Positions 26,988 to 52,825 of a stretch of 64,000 nt of DNA are shown here, in pieces. Where the stretch lies: positions 3,232,001 to 3,296,000 of the forward strand of contig OZ223209.1 of assembly GCA_965140415.1 (NCBI GenBank). Reading direction: 5' to 3'. Each line of letters begins with the position of its first letter. Position 1 is the stretch's first letter. The stretch is from Myxococcota bacterium (lineage in GTDB: Bacteria; Myxococcota_A; SURF-8). The notes beneath the pieces were generated by a model. The model saw only the letters and a list, made by a program, of their open reading frames with translations, made no database searches and was not told the origin of the DNA. Both the position numbers and the translations under genes were made by a program.

Positions 26988-27015
26988 GAGCCCGCCTTTG
27001 CAAAAGAGTATGATC

Positions 27016-27045
27016 CGTGCAGACCGGATTAATCCGGTCTGCACG
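27016..27045. other. Perfect 30-bp palindrome in an intergenic region
   Basis: CGTGCAGACCGGATT|AATCCGGTCTGCACG. Confidence 0.9.
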
Positions 27046-27095: not shown

Positions 27096-30000
27096 TTAGG
27101 AGCGTCGGCGCATCTGTCTGCGGTGACGAAATACGATCATCCAGAAGAACAACAGCATCCAAATCGGCGGATTGGCGGGATTGGACTGGCACCCCATATC
27201 GTTCTCACAGCCACCGGGAATCGTCGGATCGATCGGACCACCATTGTCGCCGGAGCTTGAATCGCCATCACTGCTATACTCTTCATCCCCAGGCACGATC
27301 GAGTCGCCATCGACGTCCCCATCTGCAACCGCATCGGATTCGCTGTCGAATTCTACATCACCATCTTCTACCACATCGCCATCCACGGGACCGGGCTTGT
27401 CGATATCGCCATCGACCCAGGGCGTTTCCGAATCTCCGGTTTCGCCTTCAGAACTCTCCTGATCCAGATCACCGTCTACAATCGCCAGGATCTCGAAATG
27501 AACGACGTTGGAAGGAATTGATGTATTACCTGCCCCATCCATTGCGGTTGCGACCACAGCCTGTTCCCCTTGCTGCAAGTCCGATTCGGAAACACAAGAG
27601 AAATCGCCGGAAGCGGATGCTGCGACTGTACATAGCGCAGCGCTCTGGTCTTCCATCCAAACGGTCACGGAAGAAAGCGCTTCGGTTTGTCCGCTGAATG
27701 TCGGGCGCAGTTCCGTCAGTTGTGCGCCATCGGTTGGTGCTTCAATCACAGGTGCGTCTGGCGCGTGCGTATCAAGGTACAATAAGAGGCTTTGAGTCGT
27801 CTCGTTATCTCCGATATCGAGCACGGACAAGCTAGCGGTATACATTCCATCGGGTAGCGGAATGCTCATCGAATCGCGACCGGTCCAAACCTGCTCGATC
27901 TGATCCAGCTTTCCCTGCAACGTGAAACTCGACTCAAACTGCAAATCGTTGGAAACATCACGGATGTTCAATGTCGCCTCATGCAACTCCGAAGAGTCTT
28001 CCAGTTCCGCATGGAACGTGGTTGATTCTCGCAAAGGATTGAACGCCGTTGGTGTCGCGGTGAAACTCGAAATAACCGGATTAGTCAGATCCATATACAT
28101 GACGCCATCGGAAGAAGCGGGCAAGCTGCTGCGCCCGGTATCGTCGTAGGCTTTGACCTGGAAGGTATAGCTTCGGTTCAAAATCAGCGAAACCGGCACG
28201 ATGTAATCCGTAGCCAGTCCCGTATCGACCCAGGATACGATCCGGTTCCCCTGATCATCCAGCACCGAAGCCAGATAACCGCTGGCTCCGGTTACGTCAT
28301 CCCAACTGGCCGCCAGAGCATCCGGTGTTTCCGTGCTGTCGATATCCACGCTAGGATCGACCAGTTGATAATCGGCGCTAAGTTGCACGTCGCGTACTTC
28401 GCCGGGGGCGGAGAGATCCTCCTGGTCGATTAGATGAAGCTGGCCGTCGTCGGTGGCAACCAGAATTTCCAGTTCACCGTCCTGATCGACATCGGCGACC
28501 ACCGGCTCGGAAACCGTAACGGAAAACGGCAAAGCCCACAACAGCGTCTGATCGGAAAGCTGCATCGCCATCAGGAATCCGTCATCCGTTCCGAATATTA
28601 CATCTTCCTCGCCATTTCCATCGATATCGCATACCGTCAAGTTGCTCAAGGTGTTTCCATCGCCCGGATCGGACGCGCCCAGTTCGCCGTTACGTGGCCA
28701 CACACGCCCGGACCAGTCGGCTTGTCCATCCGGTCCGAAAGCCTGCAAGTATCCCATCGTGCTGCTTTTAATGAAACCAAGGCCATCAGGATGCGAATAC
28801 AGCGCCAGCCAGCGTTCCCAGACTTCGTCGGAATAATCGTGGGGAATCGTAAAACTCGGACTTTCAGTCAATAGTTCAAAAAGCTGAATGCCTTTATCCG
28901 CCTGGAAATTGACGATCAGCAGTTCCTGTTCGTCATCGTTGTCGAAATCCGCCAGAATATTGTCTTTGAGCCAGTGGGTGTCGTTCACGGAAGAAATCAG
29001 GCTGCCATCCAAACCATTGTAATACTCGATATTGTAGGTATCGTGAAAAATGACATCCTCCCGACCGTCGCCGGTGATATCCAGTAAATGCGCCCTGTAG
29101 GCTACCCAGCGATAATTCTGCGAGGTCGCCACATTCCAGATTTCGGTCCCATCGGTTCCATCTAGTGCCACCAGGCGCATGTCGGATTCCGCAGGCAGGC
29201 GCGTATCCGCAATCGTCACCACGGCATCTCTCACATCATCCAGGTTCACATCTCCGAAAGCGATGTCCTGCGGCGCACTGCCGTAACCGGTAAACTCTTT
29301 TGTCCAAATCGCCTCTCCCGCTTCGTCTAGCAGGTGAATTTTCGGGTTCACCGCGTCCAGAACATCTGCCGCCGGAATTTCCAGGTTTCCGTCTCCATTC
29401 AAATCGATCGTCATCGAAAACGGTGCGGTTTCGCCTCGATAAGCCCACAAGCGCTCTGGCGGTGTCAACGCGGTCGCGGTTGAAAGATTCAACACTTCGA
29501 ACTCTGTGCTGCTGCGTGTCACAATCAATTCCGAGTGACCGTCGTCATCGAGGTCAGCAACCAGAGGACTGCTTGAGAACGTCCCGCCCTGAAGGTGGGC
29601 CTGCTGGGACAGTGTATTCGATAAAATGTCCAAATAGCCACTGGACCGATAAATCGCCGTCTCGGAAAGCTCTCCCGGCTGGGAGAGTTCATTTCCCAGA
29701 GTCAACAGCACAATCGATTCGCCGTCCGGGATCGGCCAATCCGCGAGCACAATCGGGGATGCCAGATCCGAGCGCACGGCCCGCAGGTGATCGGCTAACC
29801 CGTCGTTATTTTGATCCAGCAGAAAATACAGATCCTGTTTCTGGTCGCCATTGACATCCTGGGCGGCGATTTGTAAGGAATAGTCCCAGACATTCTGATC
29901 CGGCTTATCCTGCGGTCGAACGTAAAAGGGTGCCGCATCGGCAATACTCCAGCGGAAAACGAAGGTCGTTCCCACCAGCGAATAGACCTCGATCGGTCCG

Positions 30001-31253
30001 AATGCAGCAATGGAAGGCGTATTGGCGGGAACGCGCTGGACGATGAGTTCTGCCAGTCCATCATTATCCAGATCCTCTATGCCATGCAGATAGACATTGG
30101 CAAGCGTGGCCTGCACAGCACCATCCGAGGCATCGTATACCGCTAACGTCCACTGATCGGCAACGGAAATGCCATCGTAATCACCGGCAACGGAGCCCGG
30201 CGTTGAATACTCGTTATCCGTGTTATTATATACACTTAGCGCGACATCCACCTGACCGTCACCATTTAAATCGCTTACACTGTTTTCTGCAATGGCAATT
30301 CCCTTTCCCGCTGTTGGGAACCATTGATAGGACCAGGAAACTTCTTTTTTTACGGCGTCGTAAACCAGAACGCCGTAATCCGTGTGGAAGCGGCTTAACG
30401 CTACGATTTCATTCTGCGGGTCATCGTCCACATTCACGATCTGGCTTATCCCCTGAAAATAAGACTGGAAAACAGGAGGTACAATGGTCTGTTCGGTGCC
30501 GTCTTCGCCATTTAGAATCGTGATCTGCGCCGCTTCCCAGAAGACGACCTCCGCGCTGCCGTCGTTGTCCACATCCCCGATGACATAGGCACTGGCATCC
30601 GTGTAGGTTTGGTGCTGGTAGTGCCACAGCTCGTTCAGTTCGGCAGGAGTTTGAAATCCATCCCGAAAGGAAAATGCATGTGTGTACTCGTAGAAACTAC
30701 GCGGTTTGGTGACGAGATCCGGGTAGCCGTCGCCATCGAGATCGCCGACTCTGGCCTGAAATGGTACACTTTTACTGGCACCACTGCCAAAAGCATCGTA
30801 ATACCAAAGAGTTTCACCCGTTTTGCCATTCAGGATCACAACCGCAGCAGGCACATTGGCGCGCAACACGAGCAAGTCCTGTTCACCGTTGCGATCGAAA
30901 TCCCATGCGCCGATGATATAGCTGGCATTCAAGGCGTCGGAAAACCACAGCGTCTGTCCTTGCGGCGTCTTCAGTGCGACCTTGCCACCTACGATCATCG
31001 CAATATCTTTACGGCCATCCCCAGTCAAATCACCGATATAGCTACGAGTTGCGGAAAGACTTCCGCCCAGATAGTAGCTCCATTTCACGGTCGGATGCGT
31101 AATTCCGCCCTGCCCTTGTGACCTTCCCGTAAAACCGGGATCGTGCCGAAAAGTGGGCCAGTCCAGGCTCTGAGAAAAGCCGGGAACGGAAAAGAGAAGA
31201 ACCCAAACGAAGAACAGGGACTTCCCCCAGCTCAGTTTGCTGTTCCGAAACAT
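27096..31253 (-). CDS. Large surface protein: FG-GAP/VCBS beta-propeller repeats, Fn3/FlgD/Big-like domains, DGD linker and C-terminal MYXO-CTERM-like anchor
   Basis: Signal peptide; WPTFRHDPGFTG; many DxDxDG repeats; C-terminus GGCENDMGCQS...IWMLLFFWMIVFRHRRQMRRRS; RBS GGAGG before ATG 31253. Confidence 0.85.
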   Translation of the reverse strand: MFRNSKLSWGKSLFFVWVLLFSVPGFSQSLDWPTFRHDPGFTGRSQGQGGITHPTVKWSYYLGGSLSATRSYIGDLTGDGRKDIAMIVGGKVALKTPQGQTLWFSDALNASYIIGAWDFDRNGEQDLLVLRANVPAAVVILNGKTGETLWYYDAFGSGASKSVPFQARVGDLDGDGYPDLVTKPRSFYEYTHAFSFRDGFQTPAELNELWHYQHQTYTDASAYVIGDVDNDGSAEVVFWEAAQITILNGEDGTEQTIVPPVFQSYFQGISQIVNVDDDPQNEIVALSRFHTDYGVLVYDAVKKEVSWSYQWFPTAGKGIAIAENSVSDLNGDGQVDVALSVYNNTDNEYSTPGSVAGDYDGISVADQWTLAVYDASDGAVQATLANVYLHGIEDLDNDGLAELIVQRVPANTPSIAAFGPIEVYSLVGTTFVFRWSIADAAPFYVRPQDKPDQNVWDYSLQIAAQDVNGDQKQDLYFLLDQNNDGLADHLRAVRSDLASPIVLADWPIPDGESIVLLTLGNELSQPGELSETAIYRSSGYLDILSNTLSQQAHLQGGTFSSSPLVADLDDDGHSELIVTRSSTEFEVLNLSTATALTPPERLWAYRGETAPFSMTIDLNGDGNLEIPAADVLDAVNPKIHLLDEAGEAIWTKEFTGYGSAPQDIAFGDVNLDDVRDAVVTIADTRLPAESDMRLVALDGTDGTEIWNVATSQNYRWVAYRAHLLDITGDGREDVIFHDTYNIEYYNGLDGSLISSVNDTHWLKDNILADFDNDDEQELLIVNFQADKGIQLFELLTESPSFTIPHDYSDEVWERWLALYSHPDGLGFIKSSTMGYLQAFGPDGQADWSGRVWPRNGELGASDPGDGNTLSNLTVCDIDGNGEEDVIFGTDDGFLMAMQLSDQTLLWALPFSVTVSEPVVADVDQDGELEILVATDDGQLHLIDQEDLSAPGEVRDVQLSADYQLVDPSVDIDSTETPDALAASWDDVTGASGYLASVLDDQGNRIVSWVDTGLATDYIVPVSLILNRSYTFQVKAYDDTGRSSLPASSDGVMYMDLTNPVISSFTATPTAFNPLRESTTFHAELEDSSELHEATLNIRDVSNDLQFESSFTLQGKLDQIEQVWTGRDSMSIPLPDGMYTASLSVLDIGDNETTQSLLLYLDTHAPDAPVIEAPTDGAQLTELRPTFSGQTEALSSVTVWMEDQSAALCTVAASASGDFSCVSESDLQQGEQAVVATAMDGAGNTSIPSNVVHFEILAIVDGDLDQESSEGETGDSETPWVDGDIDKPGPVDGDVVEDGDVEFDSESDAVADGDVDGDSIVPGDEEYSSDGDSSSGDNGGPIDPTIPGGCENDMGCQSNPANPPIWMLLFFWMIVFRHRRQMRRRS

Positions 31254-31507
31254 GGTGCATCCTCCGCGATGATGGTTTGCATGGCCGTATAAACAACCGT
31301 AAATACAGGTATTATCATCTAGCGACAGGCGGTTTCCGGACATCCTTGGCGTGGCCAACTCGGTGAGCCGCTGCTACTGATATGGAACGATTTCGAGGCT
31401 CCGATATTTCCAGAAAAAACGACAATGCCACTCCTTTTTTTGTGGCTCAACTCCCACGGCCTGGAAGTGGCTTGTTTTATATTGAGTGTTTTGGGTGACG
31501 GGTGCGC

Positions 31508-33452: not shown

Positions 33453-36400
33453 TCAGTCCAGCCAGCCGTAAATCTGGTAGCTTCCCTGCCCCGTAACAGC
33501 CTGAACCAACAGATAGTAGCGATCCTGTGTGACTTCCCATTCAATCGACTGCATCGACTGATCTTCCATCGAGGCGACATCGTAGGTTTCCGACGTGGCA
33601 ACTTCGTCTTTTCTCAAAAAGAGGTGGAAGACGCTTTGTTGCTGGCTATCCAGAATCACGGAAAAATAGCCGCTACTCTGGAAATCGATGTAGTAAAGTT
33701 CCTGCTGAAGTTCATTCAACCTGCCTTCCACAACTTCATCCAGCGGCAAACGTATCGCCGTCTCTGTTCCGGCAAGGGAGACTGTCAGGGAAAATTCACC
33801 GGCTCCGCTATACTTGTGAACCATGATGTAATACACACCGGCCTGGGCCTGTTCGATCACGACCGTTTCATCGGCGGAGGAAGAATAGCCCCGTCCATCG
33901 TAATCTTCCGTCGTCGGCATCTCGCCAAGTCGTACATACAGATCGAAATCCGCTCCCTGTTCCGGTCCATCCAGCGAAACGGACAGATCCGCATTCGCAT
34001 CCAGCACGAACTGGTAGATCACGCTTTCTACCGCATCCGACAACGCCCCTTCCGCAGGGTCATCCGCTAGCAGCGTTTCGATTTCGGATTCACTTTCGAT
34101 TTCGATTTCAAAGCTCTTTTTATCACCGTTCATGAAGGTTTCCGCACTTCCTTCATCGGGCAGGAAAACGACCTCTACCGCATACTGCAATTCATGGATG
34201 CCGCCGCCCAGAAAGTCCAAACTGGAATAGTCAATCGCAATGCGATCCGGGTTGTCTCCATCGAAGTTGACTGCATCTTCTGCAACATCATGGTAGCTCG
34301 TGCCAATCACCGCGCCATCGTCGCCGCTCAACGGATTTCCGGAAGCATCGAATAGCCGTATTGTGGTTTGCAATTGACCACTGACCGTCCCCGGCGTGAC
34401 GCTGTAATACAGATCCCAGCGCAACGTTTTTCCGGTATCGCTTTCCGCTTCTTTATTGAAAGCGTGACCTTTGTCTTCAAACAGTGGCGACTGCGTCTCG
34501 CCTGCCGGTTGATAGGTGGTAAACACGCTCACCGATGGATCGCCGTAGAGGTTGAAGGACAGCATATTCATAAGTGTGCCATCCCCCCAGGAGAAGTAAC
34601 AGGGCTTACTGCGAACCATGGCCAAGGCACGACCGGCGCTGAAGTTTTTGGCCAGATAACTTGTGTAGTAATAGCCGAAGCTGACGTTATCCATGCGGCT
34701 GGAGTTCGGGCTGGACCAGGACGGCGAATAAAGCGTCACGCTTGTCGCTCCCATGGTGGTGACCGCCCCGCCTTTGTAAAGCAGGCTGTGGCCCAGGTTT
34801 CCGCTGCTGTCCGGTCGATGATTCAGGCAACTGACCTGGACTGTATGAGTCGGATGCTCGCTGTCGAAGCAGGAGGAAGACATGCTGCTATAGGCGAAGT
34901 CTTCCCAGTCCTTCTCGTTCATGTCGGCAATGCCATCGTTATCGGTATCTTCCAGCCAGGTTTTCCCGGCTGCGGAAGAACTGTTACCATGCGCCCACCA
35001 GGACGTAATGCCGTAACCTTTGGACCACTCATCGCACACGTTTTGGGTGCTGAAGGTACGATCCGGATCGTATTTAGACGGTTCCGCCCCACGGTTGTCA
35101 TACAGAGAGAATGGTTGCAGCTTATTGGAGGCATTCAAAAAATCACTCTTCATGCGCTCGGCGTATTTCGCGCCATCCACCGTAAAACCTCGATTGACTT
35201 CTTCTTCGCCGCCATTATCACCGTGGTCCATTTCATGGGAAAAGTCGCTGATCGGATTCGGCAATAACACCTTGCTCCGCCACTCGATATCCTGTTGTAA
35301 CTCATAATCCATCGTAAAACGCAGGATATCGTCGAGCCGATCCGTATTGTTGTTGTACACAGGAATGCGACCGACATACAGTTCCGGCGTCAGATCGACG
35401 CCGCCGTAGCCGGTATCGCCATTATTGGAGCCGTATTCACACCAGATCCCGTCACCATCCTTGTCCCAGTTGCCATTGAGATCGGCATAGTAGGCATCCG
35501 TGGCGGTCTTTTCCCAATTGTCCTTTTTCTCTTCCTTATTGTAGCGAGGCCAGCAGACGCGCATCGGCGCGCCGTTGTCGCTGCCATTGGGATCGGACAG
35601 AATCAGCAGGTATTGAATGCCTCGGCGGGCATATTCCTGCTTGAGCCAGTTTCTGGCTTTCTCTGCATTGTCCACGCCTTCCATCACACCGAAGTCATCT
35701 TCCGTGATCAACAGCACCGAGTAACCAATCGACGCTTTGTGCGCCATGAAGTCTTCTAAAACCTCACTTTTCGAAACAATAGCGTTGGTCGTCAGGATGG
35801 CATAATCGGTCTTGGCCACCATTTCCTCCTCATCCGGCGGCGGAGCAAGATAACGATTGCCCATGGTCCCGATATTGGAAAAGAGTGTTTGGGCCTGTCG
35901 ATCAAAGCTGCGATCCTGTAGCAACGTCACCTGCCGACGTCGCTCGATACTGCTTTTTTGCACGGCCACCGGCGTACTCAGATGAACGCGCAATAACGAC
36001 GTACGCAACAATTTCCCGCTTACGGGATTGTAGGAAAATGGGAAGAAGGTCGCACGTACGAACTTCCATTTGCGCATCTGCGCCGCTTCGGAAAGAAGCA
36101 AGGGAGAAGCCGGCCAGTTTTCATCCGTGTTGTAGATCTGGGTGTTTTTACCATCTACGATGTAGGGGCGCTGGGCCAGGTAGTCTTGAAACGTTGCATT
36201 CTCAAGATCGGGACGGAAATTGGCGGGACCGGCGGGAGCCAAATCGTAGGAGCCGATCACATTCACGGTTTCCTCGGAAAGCACTTCCATCGAAATCTGG
36301 CTGGTATCCGCATCCGGAGGCAGCAGTACATTGAACGAAATCGAGGGCAGATCCGGGTTTCCCGGCTCGGAAAGATTACCAAAGCCCTTTACGATGATTT

Positions 36401-36833
36401 CATCCAGCCCCTGCTCGTTCTCATTAAAGGCCAGTCGCAGGCCTTCCGTGTCGATGATGAAAGTTTGAGCGTCGGTGAAACGGATGAAGTTCTCCGGCTG
36501 GCAGACCTTGTCGGAGGCATCGGAAAATGGCAGGCAAACCTCACCGGAAAGGCAATCACTGTCTTTCGTGCAGAAATACTCACGCAGCATTTCCTCACTC
36601 TGAGCGGCTTGAGTGGGAGTCTCTTCGTCTCCCGAGAGTTCGCTGTCAATGTCACCATCGGGAAGGATGTCGCTTCCATCCCCATCGGTTTCAACGTCTC
36701 CAGCCTGTTCCTCATCGCCATCCACTAACGGGTCATCGTTGTTGTCATCGTCAGAGCAGCCGATCAGAATGGTGCAAGAAAGAAGAAAGAGAATCAGCAA
36801 GTGTATTCCGTTGGATAAACGCCCGTGCATCAT
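33453..36833 (-). CDS. C25 (gingipain-like) cysteine peptidase lipoprotein with propeptide and C-terminal PPC-like domains
   Basis: Lipobox LIG-C and DGD linker; PGNPDLP propeptide; TDAYYADL, PELYVGRIP, WWAHG (His), VSCL (Cys), FNLYGDP; ADFDLYVR PPC motif. Confidence 0.85.
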   Translation of the reverse strand: MMHGRLSNGIHLLILFLLSCTILIGCSDDDNNDDPLVDGDEEQAGDVETDGDGSDILPDGDIDSELSGDEETPTQAAQSEEMLREYFCTKDSDCLSGEVCLPFSDASDKVCQPENFIRFTDAQTFIIDTEGLRLAFNENEQGLDEIIVKGFGNLSEPGNPDLPSISFNVLLPPDADTSQISMEVLSEETVNVIGSYDLAPAGPANFRPDLENATFQDYLAQRPYIVDGKNTQIYNTDENWPASPLLLSEAAQMRKWKFVRATFFPFSYNPVSGKLLRTSLLRVHLSTPVAVQKSSIERRRQVTLLQDRSFDRQAQTLFSNIGTMGNRYLAPPPDEEEMVAKTDYAILTTNAIVSKSEVLEDFMAHKASIGYSVLLITEDDFGVMEGVDNAEKARNWLKQEYARRGIQYLLILSDPNGSDNGAPMRVCWPRYNKEEKKDNWEKTATDAYYADLNGNWDKDGDGIWCEYGSNNGDTGYGGVDLTPELYVGRIPVYNNNTDRLDDILRFTMDYELQQDIEWRSKVLLPNPISDFSHEMDHGDNGGEEEVNRGFTVDGAKYAERMKSDFLNASNKLQPFSLYDNRGAEPSKYDPDRTFSTQNVCDEWSKGYGITSWWAHGNSSSAAGKTWLEDTDNDGIADMNEKDWEDFAYSSMSSSCFDSEHPTHTVQVSCLNHRPDSSGNLGHSLLYKGGAVTTMGATSVTLYSPSWSSPNSSRMDNVSFGYYYTSYLAKNFSAGRALAMVRSKPCYFSWGDGTLMNMLSFNLYGDPSVSVFTTYQPAGETQSPLFEDKGHAFNKEAESDTGKTLRWDLYYSVTPGTVSGQLQTTIRLFDASGNPLSGDDGAVIGTSYHDVAEDAVNFDGDNPDRIAIDYSSLDFLGGGIHELQYAVEVVFLPDEGSAETFMNGDKKSFEIEIESESEIETLLADDPAEGALSDAVESVIYQFVLDANADLSVSLDGPEQGADFDLYVRLGEMPTTEDYDGRGYSSSADETVVIEQAQAGVYYIMVHKYSGAGEFSLTVSLAGTETAIRLPLDEVVEGRLNELQQELYYIDFQSSGYFSVILDSQQQSVFHLFLRKDEVATSETYDVASMEDQSMQSIEWEVTQDRYYLLVQAVTGQGSYQIYGWLD

Positions 36834-36971
36834 GGAGATTTCCTTCCTGGTGTTTGGTGACAGTAGTGGCCTGTACTGCTTGGCGTGGTTTTGCAATATA
36901 TGTTTTTGGTTGACTTGTCAAGCCCAGGATTGAATCAGGTATTCTTCTTGGTTCTAATGGAAAATGTGGGA

Positions 36972-42599: not shown

Positions 42600-43415
42600 T
42601 CAATTTATCCTAGATGCAACAGTCGCCTTCCAGGACTCGATTTTCTCCAGTATTTCCGGTGCGGCTTTCAATCCGGCCTGATATCCAAGCTGATAAATAT
42701 CCAGCATGGCGTCCGTTTCGAAGACGCCGAAGGTATCGATTTTATCCGGGCAGATCAACACATCGCATAGTTCGCGCTTGTCGTGTCTGTCCGCGTGATA
42801 GCGCAAATCCATCACGCGCTCGATGACATCCCGAAAGCTGTCTAGATCTTCTTTTTCGATGACCTTGTGCGGCGCGACATTGACTCCAATTATCAAATCG
42901 CAATCTTTTTTCAATGGCTCTACCGGAAAGTTATCCAGAATACCGCCATCCATGTACATTTCATCTTCAACCGCTACCGGGCTGAACATGATTGGAAAAC
43001 TGGCCGACGCCACTACGATCGGCCATAAAGGGCCGGAATCGATGATTTTCAAGGTTCCGCTCAGCATGGCTGAAACCGCCACAGAAAGCTTAAGTGGAAG
43101 TTCCTCGAAGGTTTCAACTTTGACATACTTCTTGATGTCATCGACATACGCCACGCTGTTGAATAATCCGGCTTCCAAGATTCCCAGTTTGCTTACTCGA
43201 AAAGGGTCGGTTTCCGTCCAAAAATCGAGCATTTTTTGAATGCCGCAACGCGCCGCAGCCATTACGCCAACCAGCGCGCCTGCGCTGGCTCCTGAAAAAT
43301 GAGAGATTTCGATGCCGTTTTCTTTGAACGCTTGAAGAATGCCAATATGCGCCAGCCCACGTACGCCGCCGCCGGATAGCGCCATTCCAATTTTCGGTTG
43401 TGATTGTGGTGTCAT
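42600..43415 (-). CDS. Patatin-like phospholipase
   Basis: LSGGGVRG, GASAG (GxSxG), ASASFP, DGG. Confidence 0.93.
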   Translation of the reverse strand: MTPQSQPKIGMALSGGGVRGLAHIGILQAFKENGIEISHFSGASAGALVGVMAAARCGIQKMLDFWTETDPFRVSKLGILEAGLFNSVAYVDDIKKYVKVETFEELPLKLSVAVSAMLSGTLKIIDSGPLWPIVVASASFPIMFSPVAVEDEMYMDGGILDNFPVEPLKKDCDLIIGVNVAPHKVIEKEDLDSFRDVIERVMDLRYHADRHDKRELCDVLICPDKIDTFGVFETDAMLDIYQLGYQAGLKAAPEILEKIESWKATVASRIN

Positions 43416-43597: not shown

Positions 43598-46500
43598 TTA
43601 GCGTTGAATCAGACAGGGAACGCCGGCGACGTTGATACCTACCGAAACACCATCGGGATTTTCCGGTATGGCATCCGTTTCCGGATTCGTCGCGAGTACG
43701 CCATCGTCATTCAAATCGACGTCGGGAATCGGGTCCGCCGGATCATCTCGAATCAGAATTTCCAGCGGGTTGATCATCTGGCCATCCAGATCCAATTCCA
43801 CCGCCAGATTTCCAGCCGGAACCACGCCACCCAGCAAGCTTTCATTCATGCTGACTCCGTTTGCGCCAGAAGCAAAGGTCGCGTCGATATAGGCCGGTTC
43901 CACATTCATATCCAACGCGGTTTCTCCCGTATCTAAAGAAAGGCTAAAGCGCGCTGGTTGATCCGGGTAGGTATTTAATCGTACCTGTCCGAAATCATTA
44001 ACGATTTCGACGTTTTTAAAGCGAATCATCGGCAAGCCGGTCTCTTCGTCGTAGCTGGATGGATCGATGGCGAAGGTTTCCGTTCCACTGAAATTGTCGC
44101 TGGAATCCGCATCGAGATCGACGCCGATATAACCATTGATTGTCACGACGACAGGCGGATCGCCAGGACCGGGCAACTCGGCAAGGCCGGTCAATTCCAG
44201 AATCATCAATAAGGGATCTTCAGGATCAACGATTTTATCAGCCAGAATCGGATTGGCCAGACTGCCCAAGCCAGTCAAGGCATTATCCACAGCCAGATCG
44301 CCTAAATTGCCGATCTGATCGACGTTAAATCCATCTGCCGCACCGCCGATTTGAACCACGTTCAATACGATAGCCGGGGGCGCAACGTTGGATATCGTGA
44401 TCGAATCGTCTCCCACATTTCCACGCGCATCGGTTGCACTGGCGACTAGCACGTTCTGACCTTCGACCAAGGGAACAAGCGCCGACCAGGTTGAGGTCAT
44501 GCCGCTTTCGTTATCCAGCATCACGTATACGCCATTGACGGCGAAACTCTGCAAGGTGGACAACGCCCGGTCATCCGCGATAATGCCCGTTACCTGCACT
44601 TCTCCGGCGGCAAGGCTGGCGCCGTCTTGTGGAGACGTAATCGTAACCGTTGGTGGATCGTCGGGAGCCGTGAAGGTCACGGTTACGCTTTCCTCATCGT
44701 ATCCGCCGGTGAAATCCTCGGCGCGAATGACAAGAACGTTTTCGCCATCCGCCAAAACGACACTGGCGCTGAAACTGCGGTTGAAATAATCCCAGTTGAT
44801 TGAATGAGTGTCGCCGTTCAAAGTCAGACTCAACGTAATCTGCGCCGGGTTTCCGCCTTCGGCCACCGTTCCACTGACCTCGACGGGATTCGTGTTGAAA
44901 TCCTGCCCGTTCTGAGGCGCGGTAAGCGTAATAACCGGCGGCGTGACCGGCTCGACGCGACGCACGTTAAGAGAAATCGTCGTCGTGCCACCAAGCCCAT
45001 CGGTCGCTTCGGCGCGTAGTGCATTGACGCCCATGGCCAAAGCCAGCGAGGCATCCGACTGCCAGGTTCCGGCACCTTCATCGATCGTACAAGCCACCCA
45101 GTCGCCGCTACCGATGCGCACCCGTACGGTCACATCGGAAAGCGGGCCATCGTCTGAAATCGTTCCGGTAACCACGACCGACGCTTCCGCTGTGGTCGTT
45201 CCCGGATAGGTAACAGCAAGCTCCGGGAGGTCGTTTGGCGCTTCATAGAACACCGAAACGCTGTCTTGGCCGACCTGATCATTGGTATCACGCACCGAAA
45301 GCAGCAGGCTGTTACTACCTGGCTGCAAGGTTACGGATTCCGAAATCTGTCCCGTACTTACATCGACCGTTTGCTCCTGCCCGTTGATGGAAAGCGTACC
45401 CACGCAGGTCGACAAATCCGAGTCCTGCACCGTAGCGGTAAGCGTGATATTCGGATCGGTGACGCGTGCAGGCTGCGGATCGATATCCACCACCGGGGGC
45501 AGATCGCCCAGTTGATTTTCCAAACCGCATACGCTGAAACCTTCACCGTCCGCCGTTACACCCAACAGATCCGATACGGTTTCATTGTCGATGGAAAATT
45601 CATCCTGCTCCGGCACACCCGAATCCACCGGCCAGGAGAAACGCCCGATCTCACCCGCCGTTGCGACTAAGGAAGTTCCCGCCCACAATAACTGAGGCGC
45701 ATCCTGCTGCGTGGCATGCGTATAGAAGCCATCGGCCAACGCGGAGGAAACCAGCGCATCCGCCGTGGGCGTCATCAGGTTCGCATCGCCGGAATAACTG
45801 ACGCTCATATGCGCTCCGGCAAAACTCTGCGTTCCGTCCGTACAGATCTGCAACTCTGAAAGCGTTGGCTCGGCGATCTGAATGGTGGTGCTGTCCGACA
45901 GATCGCCCGCGCTGGCAGTCACAAGCACCGCGCCTGGATCATCGTAGGAAGTAAAGGTCACCGTGACGATACCGCTTGCATCGGTCGTGGCGACACTCGA
46001 TGCGCTCAGTTCTCCCAGCGTAGTCGGGTCGAGTTCGAACTGTACTTCAGTGCCCGCCGGTACCGGCCCACCGGCATTTCGTTCCACGGTCACTGTCAGT
46101 ACCGATTGTGCGCCCTGCACCAGAATGGTTTGCGGATCGGCGCTCAGATCGATCATGGAAGGCGCATCCGGATCAATGCGCGTTACATTCAGTAGGATTT
46201 CAGTCGTCAGGCCACTTAGATCGGAAGCAAGCACCGTGATTTCATTTGCTCCCAACTCTAACTCCACCCATTGACTGAACGCCCCGCTTTCTTCGATTAC
46301 AGGCTGATACGATTCAGATCCGACGGTAATGCTTAACGGCACTGCGGCCAAGGCGATGTCGTCGGCAACCGTTCCAACGACTTCCACTCCCGTTTCCATG
46401 GTTTCCGCGCCGTTTTCAGGAGCAGTCACGGTCAAGCTCGGCGGATTCTCATCCTGCAATTCGATAACGCCCTCACTGAATGCCGCATTACCGGACAAAT

Positions 46501-49500
46501 CGGACACATCGATGCGAATCGTGTTGTCGCCAAGTTGCAAGACCATTGGCAGGTAAAAATCGTTTTCCGTGGCGTCATAAGTCGCGGCTACCGCCTCCGC
46601 AGCATTCAAGGAAACGGTCGGAGACAGCGTATCCGCCGTATCAACATCATCCGTTATTGCAAAGCGCAAGGTCTGCGCCGCTGCCGTAACAAGCGGATCC
46701 GGCGCTGTGACCTGGATAACCGGAAGTTGATTGTCTACATAGGAGATCGTCACTTCCAGTTCGCCTTCATTGCCCTGCGGATCGGCAGCGAAAATGGAAA
46801 CGGCATTGTCCCCGAGTGCAAGTGTCAACTCGCCGGTAAACGTTCCCAGCAGCGGCTCGTAGGTACAGCTAACGCGCTCCCCTTCGCCTATTGCGGCTTC
46901 AACCACAAGTTCATCGTCGCCGAAAATGTCGTGAGCGGTCCCCTTGATCGTCACTGCCGCGCGATGCACGATCAACTCATCCGGCGGGGAAACCGTCACC
47001 ACTCCATCCGTAACGGAAGTGAGAGTGATTTCAGGCGGATCGACATCGACCAGTTCCAGCGGATGTATCACCGCCTCGCTCACGTTCTCGGCCAGATCCT
47101 TGGCCTGCACCGTGATGATATTGTCTCCCAGCTTCGGTAACGTGATTTCAACTGCAAATTCGCCGTTCTCACCAAGTTCCGTTCCCAATACAGCGTACGA
47201 TTCGCCATCGGTCACCACGATTTGAACTCCGAGAATTCCTACATTGTCCGTTGCCAAGCCGGTGAGCGTCTGCACGGCTTCCGTAACTTGCGGTCCCATC
47301 GGACCGGTGACTTGCACCACGGGCGGTGTATCGTCAGTCAGCGTGACATCGCCGCTGTCGGATGCGGTCGCCCCGCGTTCATCGGTAACGGTCGCCACTA
47401 CGGTATTCAATCCCAGAGCAAGCAGAACATCCCCAGTAAACGTGCAACCGGCTTCACCGCCCGTAACGATAGCAGCGACGCCCTCCCCTTCTCTGACTCG
47501 CAAAGAAACGGTGGCCGCTTCGCAACTGCCATCGGGATCGGTAATGACACCGGAAACCGACAACAGCGGTTCCGTTACCGAATCGGGCAACGCATCCAGC
47601 TTGATGGTCGGGGCGCGATTGGCGCTTTCCTCGGAAAGATAAGCAGGCAAACCGGTCAATATGACACCGGCGGAAACGCCATCGCCGTTTTCCGTATTGT
47701 TGGTTTTATCTAACTGACCATCTTCATCCAGATCGATATCCACATCATCTTTTAACAGCGCCAAAGGAGCGATGTTCCCCAGCGCCTCCAACGGCTGGGC
47801 CAGCACCGAACAGGGAATCACACCGCCTAATAAGCCGTCTTTCAAATCGATTCCGCCCGAACGCAGGGCGCTCTGTTCGATAATGCCGGAGATCTGGGTT
47901 TCGTTGATCGTTAACGAAATCATGGCCCCTTCATCCCCCATGGGAATGGCCAAGGTAAAGACGGCAGGTCCACCTTTTAGATGAGCCACGCCATCCTCAT
48001 CCGCCCAGATATCCACACGGTCGAAATGAATCAACAGTTCCCCGTCCTCGTTAAAGGACATCGGATCGATACCGAACATTTCGGAACCACTGAAGTTATC
48101 CGTGTAATCGTCGTCCAGATCCGTGCCCATATAGCCATCCAGAGAAACCGCACCGCTTTCTCCCGGAGCAGGCAGATTGGTCAATCCGCGCAGCTTGAAC
48201 ACCAGAATCACCGATCCTTTGTCCACCGCATCTTTCAATGAGCCATTCGCCAGCGTTCCCAGCGAAGCCACGCCATTATCCGGGTCGGGATCGCCTTCCG
48301 GGCTACGCCCTTCATCGAGGTTGAAGCCTTGGGTTTCATCTCCGATCTGCACCATGTTCAGCACCAGCACCGGGTCGTCGTCGATATCCGGGCCGGTGAA
48401 GTCCGCGACGAGCGGCTCCTCTTCCTGTTCGCCATCGCCATCGGGCAGATCGCCGTCGATATCCAAATCTCCGGCGAATTCCGAATCATCGTCGCCATCC
48501 GGCACGATAAAACCGCTTTCACTATCCGAACAACCGACCGCCAGCAGCATTGGAAGCAGGAACAAGAAGAGCAGTCCCATCCAGGGCGAATCGACTCCGT
48601 GGCGACGCCGCCGCCAGAAAACTCCCAGCAGCGCAAAGGCGGCGGTCAACAACAGCAAGGAACCATCCGTATCCTGGCTCTGACAACCCAGACAACCGGA
48701 TAAATCCCCGAAAGCATCGAAAATCGAACCACCGGTCGGTTCACTCGCACCGCTAAGCACCGTACTTTCACCGGTCAGTGCATCGTATTGAATCTTCATC
48801 GTGGCGTAGCTGACGTGCGGTTCGTTATTGCCATCCAGGAAATTGTAATCGGTCACGAAAACCCGCAGCATGTTTTCACCATCGGTCAACAGGCTTTGCG
48901 CAATCGTTCCCTCCCAGTAAAGCCCTTCGGCATTGGGCAGAGCGGAAACCGTGATGGAACTGAACTCCACCAGAGGAGTAGCCGGGTCGGTCACCGGGCC
49001 GATGAAGGTTTGAATGCTCGCATTGACGGCATTGGCGGATACGCCCAGACCATTCACGATCCCGGAGAAGGGCAAATCGCCGCTATGGACGTCGTTTGGC
49101 GCGGTGATATAGATACTCGCCTGCAAGTCGCCCATCATGTCGATGAATTCGGCATTCGGATCGATTACGCTCAGTTCCGCAATACGCATGCCGCTGCCAG
49201 GCAGATCGATGGAACCGTAAGAGGACATGAACATCGGCAATACCAGATCGATCAAGGTCGGCACCGCCGCGCGTAAGGTCGTTTCATTCAACACGAAGGC
49301 CGACCAGAGCAGATCCGTATACACTTCCGGATCGGCGAGTTCCACTTCGACCTTATCCACTTCCGGGATGCCTTCGGAAGCCACATAACGAAGCGTGGCA
49401 TCGGCATACAATTCGATGGCGATATCGAACATGGCGGTTTCATACTCGCCATCACCATTGGTGTCGCCGTAGAAAGACATGACCATGTCGCCCGCACGCG

Positions 49501-52500
49501 CACGAATGCCATCCGGGTCCTGGATGCCCTCGACCGTGATCGGCAGCATAGGATGAAGCTGGATGATCATCGGCGTTCCGGTCGGAACGATTTGCTGAAC
49601 ATCCGTGCGATTCGGATTGGCCAATTCAGGAATAAAGATAGAGAAGGACGCCGTATCCAAGGAAAGCGCATCCCCCACGGTTTCCTGATCGATCGTCATT
49701 TCCAGGGTTCCCTGTGCCCATTCGCTGTAAATCAGGTAGTTGACCAGATCGTCGTTCAGCGCCACTTCCAAGGTTCGCGCCAAGCCATTCTGATCGACCA
49801 TGACCAGTTGCGGGCGACTGGCCGCATCGGGATTGGGGGTGATCAACGAACCCGGGGAATCGTAGATATCCTGTGCTGGAGGATAAGTGACCGGGTCCAG
49901 ACAGGGCAGGAAGTCATCCGGGTCTTCGGTTTCATCATCCGACTTGTCGGTAAACGCCGTCGGATCGGGACAGGGATTGCCGTAGAAATCGAGCCAGAAC
50001 TTCAACCCACTGACATCATTACTGATACTGGCGATATACAGTGCAAAGCTCGTATTTTCCTCTTCCATAAGTGGCGCAGCCAGGGCATCGCCCAGGTTGC
50101 CAAGTATGGAATCGATTTCGTTCGTAAAGGCATCGACCATGGCGTCGCGAATGGCGTCCATGGCCAAATCTAGAACCCATTCCGCGAAATCGCAATCTTC
50201 CAGTTCAAGAGTGAAATCACTTAACGTGACAGTGACCGATCCCGGTATCGAAACCAAAGCCGGACCGTCGGTACCATCCACGAAGTCCGCTTTCAAAGAG
50301 ATGGTCGCCGGGCGCGCCCTGGCATAGGCTTCACTGCCGAACCAGCAGGCCCAGTTCGAATTCATGTACATATCGACGTGCAGGTAATGGATGACCATCG
50401 TGATATCGACGTGCCCATCATTATCGATGCCCATCAATACAGTCACGCTCTGATCGCAGTTATAACGGCAACGGGGCGGATTCATGACACCGGAAGGACC
50501 ATCATAGCGGTGACCGCTACCAGGATCGCAAAACGCGAGGCCGGTTGCATCCATCGAAATGCCCGCCTCGGAAACCGATTCGTCGATCATTTCCGATCCG
50601 TCCATGGCTTCCACCTCCGTTTCCACCATGGCGGTGAAATAGCTGAGTACAGACTCCGCCAGCCCCATACCGGCTCCGTTTTTGCCGATATCGCCTCGCA
50701 GCAGGTAGTCGCCGGTCAACGCACCCTGAATGTTCAGGTTGTCGTTGGCCAATTCATCCGTGGCTGTAACACGCAACAACTGCAAACCGCCGGTATTGAA
50801 CGCCTCCTGTGGGATAGTGAACTCGAAGTCTGCATAATCGTTGCTCGTGGTAACGGGCAGATCCTGACCGTCGAATTGCACGGTTACAGCCGAAGTACCG
50901 GTGTATAAATCGGTTGCCTGCCCCGTAACCAGAATGCTGCTCGTTCCATCGTAGTTTCCCAACTCGGGAGCATTGAACTGGCCGGAACTGGAAACGTGCG
51001 CTCCGCGCCGGAATCCGTTCAAGCTGATTTCCGGTCCTTCTACATCCTGATGCACCGTGATGGCATGCTGCGCCTCATTACCTGCGCCATCTCGGGCGCT
51101 GGCGGTAACGCCATTGGCTCGCGGAATCAGCGGCAACGGTCCAAGCTGGAAGCTGCCGTCTGTGACAGTTGCCTCATAGCCGTTTACCCAGACGCCTTCG
51201 ATACCGCTTACGGCATCGGAAACCGTACCGGAGATAATCACCGTGGGAGCGTTAGTCACCACGCCATCCACGCCATCTTCCGGCAGGAAGACATAGCCAT
51301 CCCGGAAAACACGAGTGATTTCAATGACTGGAGCAACTGTATCCATCGTCACCACCAAATCGACGGTTACCAGGTTACCTGCGGTATCCTGAGCGACGAC
51401 TTGAAGCGTGTTTTCTCCTTCCGCCAGTTCCCAGTCGGGCACGGAGAAGGAGTCACCCTGTTGCAGGCTTCCATCGGGTACGCCGTTCAAACTGACAATG
51501 CGAACGGTTTCGCTGATGCCGATGATCCAAGTGTATGGAGACGTGTTGACAAACGGATCGGAAAGCAGAGTCAAGACGGGATCGATGAAATCCCCCACGA
51601 TAGTCACGGGGCCGGCGTCGGTGGTATTTCCCGCCAGATCGACCGCCTGAGCACTAAAGGTATTCTCTCCTTGCTCAATCGTGACTTCGATCTGCCAAGT
51701 TCCGGCTGAACTGTCGTAGCTCGCCGTTTCACCATTGACGCTTACGCTCTCTATGCCGTATCCATCCGAAGCCGTTCCACCGATAACTACGGTGGATTGA
51801 TTGGTCGGACTCGCTACCGGATCGATGGCAATGGCCGGAGCAGTCGCATCGTAAGTTACTGAAATCTGAACGGCTTCACTGATATTTCCCGCCAGATCCC
51901 GGGCCGTTGCACTTACGGAATGCACCCCTTCACCGGAGAACGTAACATCCGCGCCCCACAGCCATTGCCCGCTTCCCATATCGATTAGCTGGGCGGCATT
52001 GCCCTGCACCAGCACTTCCACGACATCATGAAGATCCGTAGCCGTTCCCGAGAATTGAGTCGGGCTTTGGTTCAGGTAGTCTCCTTCCAAGGGACTGTCG
52101 AAAACGATTTCCGGAGATATCGTATCCAGAGTAATCGTTGCCGGTTCGCTGAATGCACCGATTCGGCCCAAGGCATCGGCAGCACGTGCAGTAAACGAAT
52201 TCTCGCCCTCCTGGAGTTGAACGAGAGCAGCGAAACTACCATCGGGGTAGACATTGACATCGGCTGCGATCAGTTGATCCTGTAACCAGATTTCGACCAC
52301 GCAATCGTCGAGGGACTGGTCATCGGCCACTACACCACTGATGGCAAAGGTACTGTCGTTCGTAAGAACACCATCGTCATCGAGCGTCACCACCGGAGAC
52401 GCATTCAAGCCATCGAAAACGATGTGCCCGGCAGCGCGTCTGGCTGCCAATACGGCATCGCCAATCGTGAAATCGGCATTGGGTTGCGGGTTCGGGCGCA

Positions 52501-52756
52501 CCCGATGCGGATATGGATCGGCAGGATCGGACAGTAACTCTCCCGGCGCGACATCTCCTCGGGAGACATCCTGTTCCGTCGCTTCCGTTTCACCGGCAAT
52601 CAATTCAAATGCCCGTTGCACGTCCAGTTCATCAACCCCAACTGGATCGACGAGATCGGTCAGTTCATCTGCCGTAGGATCTTCCGCCAACACTGGAAAG
52701 GCCCCAAGCATAAACCAACCCAATAGAATCGCGATTACAGATAGATTCCGGACCAT
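43598..52756 (-). CDS. Giant (~3050 aa) multidomain surface protein, apparent polyprotein. Order: signal peptide, dockerin-like, Ig-like repeats, BPI/LBP-like, internal CTERM-like anchor plus lipoprotein signal, duplicated unknown domain, Ig-like repeats, cohesin-like
   Basis: Single uninterrupted ORF with RBS AAGGAGG before ATG 52756; many ..GxNx....AxDxxGN Big repeats; internal GCLGCQS-TM-WRRRRH-TM-LAVG-C. Confidence 0.88.
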   Translation of the reverse strand: MVRNLSVIAILLGWFMLGAFPVLAEDPTADELTDLVDPVGVDELDVQRAFELIAGETEATEQDVSRGDVAPGELLSDPADPYPHRVRPNPQPNADFTIGDAVLAARRAAGHIVFDGLNASPVVTLDDDGVLTNDSTFAISGVVADDQSLDDCVVEIWLQDQLIAADVNVYPDGSFAALVQLQEGENSFTARAADALGRIGAFSEPATITLDTISPEIVFDSPLEGDYLNQSPTQFSGTATDLHDVVEVLVQGNAAQLIDMGSGQWLWGADVTFSGEGVHSVSATARDLAGNISEAVQISVTYDATAPAIAIDPVASPTNQSTVVIGGTASDGYGIESVSVNGETASYDSSAGTWQIEVTIEQGENTFSAQAVDLAGNTTDAGPVTIVGDFIDPVLTLLSDPFVNTSPYTWIIGISETVRIVSLNGVPDGSLQQGDSFSVPDWELAEGENTLQVVAQDTAGNLVTVDLVVTMDTVAPVIEITRVFRDGYVFLPEDGVDGVVTNAPTVIISGTVSDAVSGIEGVWVNGYEATVTDGSFQLGPLPLIPRANGVTASARDGAGNEAQHAITVHQDVEGPEISLNGFRRGAHVSSSGQFNAPELGNYDGTSSILVTGQATDLYTGTSAVTVQFDGQDLPVTTSNDYADFEFTIPQEAFNTGGLQLLRVTATDELANDNLNIQGALTGDYLLRGDIGKNGAGMGLAESVLSYFTAMVETEVEAMDGSEMIDESVSEAGISMDATGLAFCDPGSGHRYDGPSGVMNPPRCRYNCDQSVTVLMGIDNDGHVDITMVIHYLHVDMYMNSNWACWFGSEAYARARPATISLKADFVDGTDGPALVSIPGSVTVTLSDFTLELEDCDFAEWVLDLAMDAIRDAMVDAFTNEIDSILGNLGDALAAPLMEEENTSFALYIASISNDVSGLKFWLDFYGNPCPDPTAFTDKSDDETEDPDDFLPCLDPVTYPPAQDIYDSPGSLITPNPDAASRPQLVMVDQNGLARTLEVALNDDLVNYLIYSEWAQGTLEMTIDQETVGDALSLDTASFSIFIPELANPNRTDVQQIVPTGTPMIIQLHPMLPITVEGIQDPDGIRARAGDMVMSFYGDTNGDGEYETAMFDIAIELYADATLRYVASEGIPEVDKVEVELADPEVYTDLLWSAFVLNETTLRAAVPTLIDLVLPMFMSSYGSIDLPGSGMRIAELSVIDPNAEFIDMMGDLQASIYITAPNDVHSGDLPFSGIVNGLGVSANAVNASIQTFIGPVTDPATPLVEFSSITVSALPNAEGLYWEGTIAQSLLTDGENMLRVFVTDYNFLDGNNEPHVSYATMKIQYDALTGESTVLSGASEPTGGSIFDAFGDLSGCLGCQSQDTDGSLLLLTAAFALLGVFWRRRRHGVDSPWMGLLFLFLLPMLLAVGCSDSESGFIVPDGDDDSEFAGDLDIDGDLPDGDGEQEEEPLVADFTGPDIDDDPVLVLNMVQIGDETQGFNLDEGRSPEGDPDPDNGVASLGTLANGSLKDAVDKGSVILVFKLRGLTNLPAPGESGAVSLDGYMGTDLDDDYTDNFSGSEMFGIDPMSFNEDGELLIHFDRVDIWADEDGVAHLKGGPAVFTLAIPMGDEGAMISLTINETQISGIIEQSALRSGGIDLKDGLLGGVIPCSVLAQPLEALGNIAPLALLKDDVDIDLDEDGQLDKTNNTENGDGVSAGVILTGLPAYLSEESANRAPTIKLDALPDSVTEPLLSVSGVITDPDGSCEAATVSLRVREGEGVAAIVTGGEAGCTFTGDVLLALGLNTVVATVTDERGATASDSGDVTLTDDTPPVVQVTGPMGPQVTEAVQTLTGLATDNVGILGVQIVVTDGESYAVLGTELGENGEFAVEITLPKLGDNIITVQAKDLAENVSEAVIHPLELVDVDPPEITLTSVTDGVVTVSPPDELIVHRAAVTIKGTAHDIFGDDELVVEAAIGEGERVSCTYEPLLGTFTGELTLALGDNAVSIFAADPQGNEGELEVTISYVDNQLPVIQVTAPDPLVTAAAQTLRFAITDDVDTADTLSPTVSLNAAEAVAATYDATENDFYLPMVLQLGDNTIRIDVSDLSGNAAFSEGVIELQDENPPSLTVTAPENGAETMETGVEVVGTVADDIALAAVPLSITVGSESYQPVIEESGAFSQWVELELGANEITVLASDLSGLTTEILLNVTRIDPDAPSMIDLSADPQTILVQGAQSVLTVTVERNAGGPVPAGTEVQFELDPTTLGELSASSVATTDASGIVTVTFTSYDDPGAVLVTASAGDLSDSTTIQIAEPTLSELQICTDGTQSFAGAHMSVSYSGDANLMTPTADALVSSALADGFYTHATQQDAPQLLWAGTSLVATAGEIGRFSWPVDSGVPEQDEFSIDNETVSDLLGVTADGEGFSVCGLENQLGDLPPVVDIDPQPARVTDPNITLTATVQDSDLSTCVGTLSINGQEQTVDVSTGQISESVTLQPGSNSLLLSVRDTNDQVGQDSVSVFYEAPNDLPELAVTYPGTTTAEASVVVTGTISDDGPLSDVTVRVRIGSGDWVACTIDEGAGTWQSDASLALAMGVNALRAEATDGLGGTTTISLNVRRVEPVTPPVITLTAPQNGQDFNTNPVEVSGTVAEGGNPAQITLSLTLNGDTHSINWDYFNRSFSASVVLADGENVLVIRAEDFTGGYDEESVTVTFTAPDDPPTVTITSPQDGASLAAGEVQVTGIIADDRALSTLQSFAVNGVYVMLDNESGMTSTWSALVPLVEGQNVLVASATDARGNVGDDSITISNVAPPAIVLNVVQIGGAADGFNVDQIGNLGDLAVDNALTGLGSLANPILADKIVDPEDPLLMILELTGLAELPGPGDPPVVVTINGYIGVDLDADSSDNFSGTETFAIDPSSYDEETGLPMIRFKNVEIVNDFGQVRLNTYPDQPARFSLSLDTGETALDMNVEPAYIDATFASGANGVSMNESLLGGVVPAGNLAVELDLDGQMINPLEILIRDDPADPIPDVDLNDDGVLATNPETDAIPENPDGVSVGINVAGVPCLIQR

Positions 52757-52825
52757 CAGTCGCCTCCTTGCAATGAAGACCGATTGCATTTTGTGTTACC
52801 GATAAAACGATTGCAGTCTCTTACC

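Follow-up and report, generated by a model that had tools for sequence, protein, structure and literature searches.

In the 64,000-nucleotide stretch of DNA analyzed here (the window; positions 3,232,001 to 3,296,000 of contig OZ223209.1, assembly GCA_965140415.1, from a Myxococcota bacterium whose genome is referred to as G000), a single uninterrupted open reading frame (ORF) on the minus strand, 43598..52789, encodes 3063 amino acids (aa) counted from its first ATG. In the middle of this giant ORF, a MYXO-CTERM sorting tag runs directly into a lipoprotein signal peptide. The locus raises the question of whether two envelope proteins are truly encoded in one frame and, if so, what becomes of the chain at the junction between them. 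Our answer, which we hold to be probable, is that the ORF is a real and conserved single gene for two envelope proteins that are joined by a membrane hairpin and cut into two lipid-anchored products.

An earlier note on this DNA, made without database searches, had placed the ORF at 43598-52756. The frame is real; position 52756 corresponds to Met12, where the called protein (P0002, 3052 aa) begins, and the upstream limit of the ORF lies at 52789. The letters of the junction also stand as they were described there: a Cys motif of the tag, a hydrophobic stretch, RRRRH-GVDSPW, and a lipobox Cys at 48530-48532. The Cys motif reads S-G-C-L-G-C (Cys-x-Gly-Cys), with Cys1366 at 48692-48694 and Cys1369 at 48683-48685. 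A short polar spacer separates it from a first hydrophobic helix of 17 residues (1376-1392, 48614-48664), and the cluster RRRR follows at residues 1393-1396. The three signature elements of a MYXO-CTERM tag, namely Cys, transmembrane helix, and Arg-rich cluster, are all present, but 1667 residues stand C-terminal to the Arg cluster where a C-terminus would be expected.

A lipobox has Gly, Ala, or Ser at position -1 and Cys at position +1. The segment that follows the basic loop reads MGLLFLFLLPMLLAVG-C, that is, a hydrophobic region (h-region) of 16 residues which ends in A-V-G before Cys1420. With the basic n-region ahead of it, the junction of the ORF shows every element of a lipoprotein signal (basic n-region, h-region, G/A/S at -1, Cys at +1) except its place, as the signal begins at residue 1393 of 3063 and not at the N-terminus.

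The earlier note had recommended checking the junction for a missed stop or an indel. A public sequencing run, possibly of the source sample, yielded a Logan contig of 16.3 kb (depth 40.8) in which positions 48000-49000 are identical to the window with 0 differences and 0 gaps; neither a missed stop nor an indel was found. A further run, X2, covers the stretch in short pieces only. The junction is not an assembly error.

The tag was scored with TIGR03901, the NCBIfam hidden Markov model (HMM) of MYXO-CTERM, for which the curated cut-off is 20 bits. Residues 1364-1396 reached 24.7 bits in the whole protein, 27.7 bits on a 120-aa piece, and 30.3 bits in a six-frame search of the genome, so that the assignment made by eye in the earlier note was borne out by the model. 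Throughout G000, 25 matches were obtained at E<=0.1, 18 of them above the cut-off. Whereas 23 of these 25 matches finish 1-9 residues ahead of a stop, two are internal, and both internal matches run straight into a lipobox segment. As only these two tags are internal and both have a lipobox directly after them, the junction is more than chance.

The likenesses to neighbouring proteins drawn in the earlier note were found as well. The C-terminus of the FG-GAP protein at 27096..31358 (minus strand; previously given as 27096-31253) has a Cys motif followed by a hydrophobic stretch and a basic tail, and the N-termini of the Melibiase-family (25014..27044) and Peptidase_C25 (33453..36896) proteins show a lipobox followed by D/G-rich linkers. 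The clear tag of the FG-GAP protein, which also carries immunoglobulin (Ig)-like domains, is not among the 25 TIGR03901 matches at E<=0.1, which indicates that the HMM undercounts tags in this lineage. In the available text of their preprint, the authors of TIGR03901 note that good sensitivity in different lineages is difficult to achieve with a model of 34 residues (bioRxiv 10.1101/2023.06.07.544157). Additionally, two regular-expression scans of the genome for hairpins returned the giant ORF together with one or two ordinary polytopic proteins and missed a second junction protein, P0008 (see below); the scans are insensitive and give no count. One other model was considered and rejected: NF058595 ("invert_tail", the lipo-invert C-terminal anchoring domain) scored 13.7-17 bits at the junction against a cut-off of 37, and with 99 sub-threshold matches in G000 and matches in 14 of 14 control genomes this is hydrophobic-segment noise.

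Homologues of the giant ORF were found in genomes of the order and in protein collections. Among the ten species genomes of the order, the gene is present in five including G000 (E<=1e-10), and the frames in the four other genomes comprise 3098, 3151, 3094, and 2366 aa, the last being cut by a contig end; none of these four copies contains a stop across the junction. A search of 5.8 billion protein clusters returned six clusters including the window's own, and HMMER against 1.84 billion representatives added P0009 and P0010 as well as the more distant P0011 and P0012. When a collection with one genome for each of 185,579 species was scanned with an alignment as query, four loci came up, all fused and the same as in the order; a single-protein query on this collection returned 0 loci. 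After duplicates had been merged (P0003 being close to G004, P0004 the same as G008, and P0010 the same as G006), 11 distinct sequences were available: G000, G004/P0003, G008/P0004, G006/P0010, G007, P0005, P0006, P0007, P0009, P0011, and P0012.

In all 11 sequences, one frame holds a tag Cys, a first helix, a basic cluster, a second helix, and a Cys ending the second helix, and the residue at -1 to this second Cys is G, A, or S in 10 of them. Overall identity to G000 is 31-58%, and both junction helices diverge freely. The fused frame and the lipobox Cys, on both of which the earlier note had made its reading depend, are hence kept throughout the family. A split form of the giant ORF was seen neither at E<=1e-5 among the 8000 shorter proteins with the most shared words, which were the ones scored, nor among 54 HMMER hits.

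The same tag-to-lipobox junction occurs in P0008, a 1670-aa ORF on the plus strand of G000 outside the window (G000:C1:845600-850612; locus L054:201-5213), for which no Pfam or NCBIfam match above threshold was obtained. In the P0008 family, the junction is found in 12 of the 12 genomes first aligned, including two other taxonomic families of the phylum (25-30% identity), and the family is also fused in G011, G020, and G040, which brings the number of fused genomes to 15. In G018 (L076, G018:C25:13500-24500, minus strand), the family is split into two genes. Gene 1 (a 923-aa frame) closes with a terminal MYXO-CTERM; gene 2 has its own signal peptide, and its ATG overlaps the stop of gene 1 as TGATG. 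G018 and the fused G011 belong to one taxonomic family. In view of this split form, the fused junction is what would be expected from an end-to-start fusion of a coupled pair.

The two junction families are related in one half only. Region 620-1345 of the giant ORF, for which a fold similar to that of BPI is predicted (see below), aligned with the N-half of the P0008 family (hhalign probability 97.7%, E 2e-12, 339 columns). The C-halves are unrelated (hhalign probability <1%), and whole-protein BLASTP between the two families returned nothing. Through the hhalign link, both junction proteins of G000 place a BPI-like module upstream of the hairpin. P0008 furthermore has a putative lipoprotein signal of its own at the N-terminus, so that lipid anchors would be expected at both termini of its BPI-like N-half.

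Genes for both anchoring systems are present in G000. The myxosortase core model NF040914 (Mrt_core) scored 127.4 bits against a cut-off of 100 at G000:C1:2971025-2971339, and two GspD secretins are above their cut-off. LspA is encoded in one copy (129.1 bits) and Lnt reached 284.1 bits, while two copies of Lgt are above the cut-off (152.4 bits and 144 bits, the 144-bit copy lying beside lspA) and accompanied by two weaker paralogues. The Lgt-like loci are located at G000:C1:4253002-4253763, 3700167-3701033, 3967149-3968000, and 144530-145252. These four genes could bear on the acyltransferase that has been proposed for MYXO-CTERM cysteines.

Models were generated for parts of both halves. The AlphaFold2 model of residues 620-1345 of the N-half, based on a 10-row alignment, had a mean predicted local distance difference test (pLDDT) of 84.7. 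With Foldseek, residues ~700-1230 matched BPI (1ewf, E 3.5e-18, template modelling score 0.55 on the target), LBP (4m4d), and CETP (2obd), at E values from 3.5e-18 to 3e-16, probability 1.00, and sequence identities of 10-13%; bacterial OrfX/P47 proteins were matched as well. No Pfam family matched the central N-half above threshold, LBP_BPI_CETP_C (PF02886) reaching 17.9 bits versus 23. In the ESM Atlas, the best score for the BPI-like region was 0.91, with low recognition and Myxococcota clusters, and one cluster had LBP_BPI_CETP on 21% of its members. On the basis of the model, the N-half carries a BPI/LBP/CETP-like (TULIP) fold, putatively lipid-binding. The predicted two-lobed fold is shared with the TULIP proteins; the domain is, unlike in these, embedded in a giant Ig-rich predicted surface protein.

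The C-half is bounded at both ends by a domain of ~260 residues (termed D), the two copies being separated by about ten Ig-like domains. For the first copy, AlphaFold2 (40-row alignment) predicted with a pLDDT of 87.9 a meander beta-barrel containing a D-x-D-x-D-G motif similar to a calcium site. Foldseek gave no match to the D domain at E<=1e-3, the ESM Atlas gave no usable match, and the best VIA-align scores (Z 8.1) were to generic small barrels (OmpA-like, avidins, lipocalins, TbpB/HpuA/fHbp). A complex prediction of the BPI-like region with the first D domain scored 0.00, which speaks neither for nor against an association of the two.

Elsewhere, 54 hits to the D domain were obtained at E<=1e-3; the domain is found by itself in short lipoproteins and also forms the C-termini of further giant proteins. 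Eleven of the 54, chosen by length, were inspected. Five complete, short proteins (P0021, P0026, P0043, P0044, and P0048) start with a lipobox signal, from which an acidic linker leads straight into the D domain, and P0018, whose start is cut, retains the lipobox; the remaining five are either fragmentary or represent C-terminal portions of large proteins. The start of the C-half resembles the stand-alone D-domain lipoproteins as well as the Melibiase and C25 lipoproteins of the window, with a lipobox and a D/G linker.

The positions of all features are collected in Table 1. The relatives' sequences read with an equal layout at the N-terminal signal peptide. Residues ~36-125 (52417..52685, minus strand), for which no family match was seen, are conserved; acidic D-x-D / G-D-A-V-L motifs recur there and are reminiscent of the calcium sites of dockerins or EF-hand-like domains. 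On the same strand, 183 nt downstream of the giant ORF, lies a gene for a patatin-like phospholipase (42600..43415); it had no counterpart beside the giant-ORF homologues at four loci in other genomes.

Table 1. Features of the giant ORF, in positions of the window
Feature	Position	Strand	Remarks
Whole ORF	43598..52789	-	3063 aa; called start Met12 at 52756
N-terminal Sec-type signal peptide (putative)	52685..52789	-	Basic n-region, hydrophobic core, ...VLA then EDP; read from sequence
Ig-like array of the N-half	50930..52417	-	Big_13 and OmpL47-type matches
Modelled central region of the N-half, residues 620-1345	48755..50932	-	Predicted BPI/LBP/CETP-like (TULIP) fold, then beta-sandwich (AlphaFold2)
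Internal MYXO-CTERM tag, residues 1364-1396	48602..48700	-	TIGR03901 above cut-off
Basic loop RRRRH-GVDSPW, residues 1393-1403	48581..48613	-	Would serve both as cytoplasmic tail of the tag and as n-region of the lipoprotein signal
Second hydrophobic segment and lipobox, residues 1404-1420	48530..48580	-	A-V-G-C; Cys1420 = 48530-48532
Acidic D/G/E-rich linker, residues 1421-1465 (45 residues)	48395..48529	-	Directly after the lipobox Cys
First D domain, residues 1462-1770	47480..48406	-	Predicted meander beta-barrel, D-x-D-x-D-G motif (AlphaFold2)
Ig-like array of the C-half	44435..47482	-	Nine Glucodextran_B stretches, Big_1, Big_7
Second D-domain copy, residues 2785-3063	43601..44437	-	Extreme C-terminus; internal match with 43% identity

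From the features found at the junction, their conservation, the enzyme genes, and the predicted folds, we infer the following course of processing. Sec would export the N-half with its signal peptide, Ig-like domains, and BPI/LBP-like domain until the MYXO-CTERM helix stops the transfer. The RRRR loop would be kept in the cytoplasm, which fits the positive-inside rule, and the second hydrophobic segment would re-initiate export for the C-half. The junction cysteines would then flank the hairpin at the outer (periplasmic) face of the inner membrane, where they would be lipidated by an Lgt-type enzyme. A cut in the tag by a myxosortase would leave an N-half of ~1330 aa with a C-terminal lipid anchor, which the type II system would carry to the surface. 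Similarly, a cut by LspA before Cys1420 would leave an N-terminally lipidated C-half of 1644 aa, and the hairpin of ~50 residues would be discarded. As a fusion, the gene would yield both products in a constant 1:1 ratio, and the TGATG coupling of the split form would point to the same need.

Several observations weigh against two cuts at the hairpin and need to be considered with care. Cleavage is deduced from the sequence. Lgt and LspA are known to act only on N-terminal signals, and their action on a helix-tethered signal is assumed. The tag is not recognized evenly among the relatives: only four of the five aligned genome copies match TIGR03901 at E<=0.1, P0005 (19.6 bits) and P0007 (18.2 bits) fall just below the cut-off of 20, and no match at E<=0.1 was obtained for P0006, P0009, P0011, and P0012. 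In P0009, a cluster representative of 3046 aa, the basic loop spans ~55 residues and Q occupies lipobox position -1; its junction may be a variant or may be decaying. Position -3 of the lipobox in G000 is Ala, not Leu. Finally, the split example in G018 belongs to the P0008 family and not to that of the giant ORF.

Of the other explanations, the one that survives best, unlikely as it is, is an uncut hairpin anchor, in which the protein would remain whole, held in the inner membrane through its two helices while both halves lie in the periplasm, and the Cys motifs would be relics of the fusion. The sub-threshold or silent tag HMM in 6 of the 11 sequences agrees with it, as does the degenerate lipobox of P0009. 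Relics would be expected to decay, however, and the conserved cysteines speak against such an anchor: both are kept in 11 of 11 sequences at 31-58% identity despite the divergence of the helices, with G/A/S at -1 in 10 of 11, and the two-Cys design recurs in the 15 fused copies of the second family.

Second among the alternatives, and likewise improbable, is a single cut. Either a myxosortase would free the N-half and leave the C-half signal-anchored, or LspA would cut and leave the N-half helix-anchored. Each cut alone would part the halves, and the proposal published for MXAN_5598 (see below) involves the tag alone in the available text of PMC11980579. Against a single cut, both signal motifs are conserved together, the stand-alone relatives of the C-half are ordinary lipoproteins, and gene 1 of the split form has its tag at the end, where the 23 normal tags of G000 are also located.

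The earlier note had named an independent internal start, the ATG of Met1404 at 48578-48580, as a possible source of the second half, the fusion of frames then being incidental. Such a start does exist in G000, in frame and with a GGAG upstream, and G006 has an ATG at the equivalent place, but Met1404 is not conserved. The GGAG lies 14 nt from the ATG; between basic cluster and lipobox, G004 has no in-frame ATG, GTG, or TTG, and G008 and G007 have only a TTG, situated within the hydrophobic core and without a Shine-Dalgarno-like motif. A product from Met1404 would, moreover, be devoid of a basic n-region, and we regard this origin of the C-half as very unlikely. All the sequence-level checks put forward in the earlier note turned out to favour its reading. 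A sequencing or assembly error that removed a stop or shifted the frame between two genes has practically no chance of being the explanation, for although one substituted base in the Trp1403 codon (TGG to TGA) would make a stop just ahead of the ATG, the short-read contig (possibly of the same sample) is identical and ten other assemblies or clusters from several sources have the open frame.

With cleavage on both sides of the hairpin as the preferred reading, the junction can be compared to known systems. The statement of the earlier note that no such system had been described proved too strong, as a MYXO-CTERM in mid-chain is in print for MXAN_5598 of Myxococcus xanthus, where the authors consider a fusion of genes probable and propose that the adhesin part at the N-terminus undergoes processing and is anchored on the surface (Guo, Haft & Wall, mBio 2025, PMC11980579). 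The mid-chain tag and its interpretation as a fusion of two genes are common to both proteins. The C-part of MXAN_5598, on the other hand, is given in the available text as an outer-membrane beta-barrel with an OmpA domain, whereas that of the giant ORF is a lipoprotein by its signal, and the available portions of PMC11980579 mention no lipobox or signal peptide after the MXAN_5598 tag, the one use of the word lipobox there concerning another matter. Our literature search found an internal MYXO-CTERM in that paper alone, and it returned no paper on an internal lipobox or on a bacterial polyprotein cut by signal peptidase. What goes beyond the available text of that paper is the lipoprotein signal peptide directly paired with an internal tag, the internal MYXO-CTERM itself having been published.

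Canonical sorting of MYXO-CTERM proteins by myxosortases (MrtX, MrtC, MrtP) resembles the proposed route in the tripartite tag with its invariant Cys, as far as the sources extend (PMC11980579; bioRxiv 10.1101/2023.06.07.544157), and a myxosortase core gene and type II secretion genes are present in G000; the tag of the giant ORF differs in being 1667 residues away from the C-terminus. According to the available text of PMC11980579, MrtX cleaves MYXO-CTERM, and a myxosortase cut at the lipidated tag has been demonstrated for TraA. The same text gives overlapping ORFs for TraA and TraB of M. xanthus (PMC11980579). This arrangement, in which the gene for a MYXO-CTERM surface protein lies upstream of and overlaps a partner gene, matches the TGATG form of G018; TraA and TraB are, however, two separate genes and of different protein families. 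For internal tags, the accessible part of the paper cites work on LPXTG and on archaeal ArtA substrates (PMC11980579).

With the bacterial lipoprotein pathway (Lgt, LspA, Lnt), the C-half has in common the n-region, hydrophobic core, lipobox Cys, acidic tether, and encoded enzymes; it differs in that the signal begins at residue 1393 and the n-region is common to the preceding tag. In 2017, Abdul Halim et al. reportedly studied HVO_0405 of Haloferax volcanii, a substrate of ArtA with a tripartite signal located elsewhere than at the C-terminus. This protein is cited as showing processing of an internal sorting tag, as proposed here, but it is archaeal and relies on another sorting enzyme and another tag. 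In flavivirus polyproteins, the host signal peptidase cuts at helix-hairpin junctions, and the cytochrome b/c1 precursor FbcH of Bradyrhizobium is comparable. There too, a stop-transfer helix is followed by an internal signal peptide and a membrane peptidase splits the chain; these systems use type I signal peptidase without lipid anchors, whereas two lipid-anchoring systems would act on one hairpin in the giant ORF. A literature search on fbcH gave no occurrence among the matches listed.

It is quite conceivable, at somewhat less than even chances, that Myxococcota make secreted polyproteins by this device, a tag fused to a lipoprotein signal serving as a disposable hairpin on either side of which myxosortase and Lgt/LspA cut to give 1:1 products. 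As a BPI-like module stands upstream in both cases of G000, the device may serve a two-part surface machine that binds or moves lipids, such as the membrane lipids of prey or of kin. In bacteria, each protein chain is as a rule sorted by itself, and hardly any natural polyprotein is known that envelope sorting enzymes split. If both cuts occur, two signals that belong at opposite ends of a protein, the sorting tag at the C-terminus and the lipoprotein signal at the N-terminus, would both work in mid-chain, Lgt and LspA would accept a tethered signal, and gene fusion would lock two surface proteins into equal dosage. Furthermore, the junction would offer a handle for dissecting the still unproven lipidation step of MYXO-CTERM sorting, and the finding adds BPI/LBP-like domains to the predicted cell surface of this uncultured lineage of myxobacteria.

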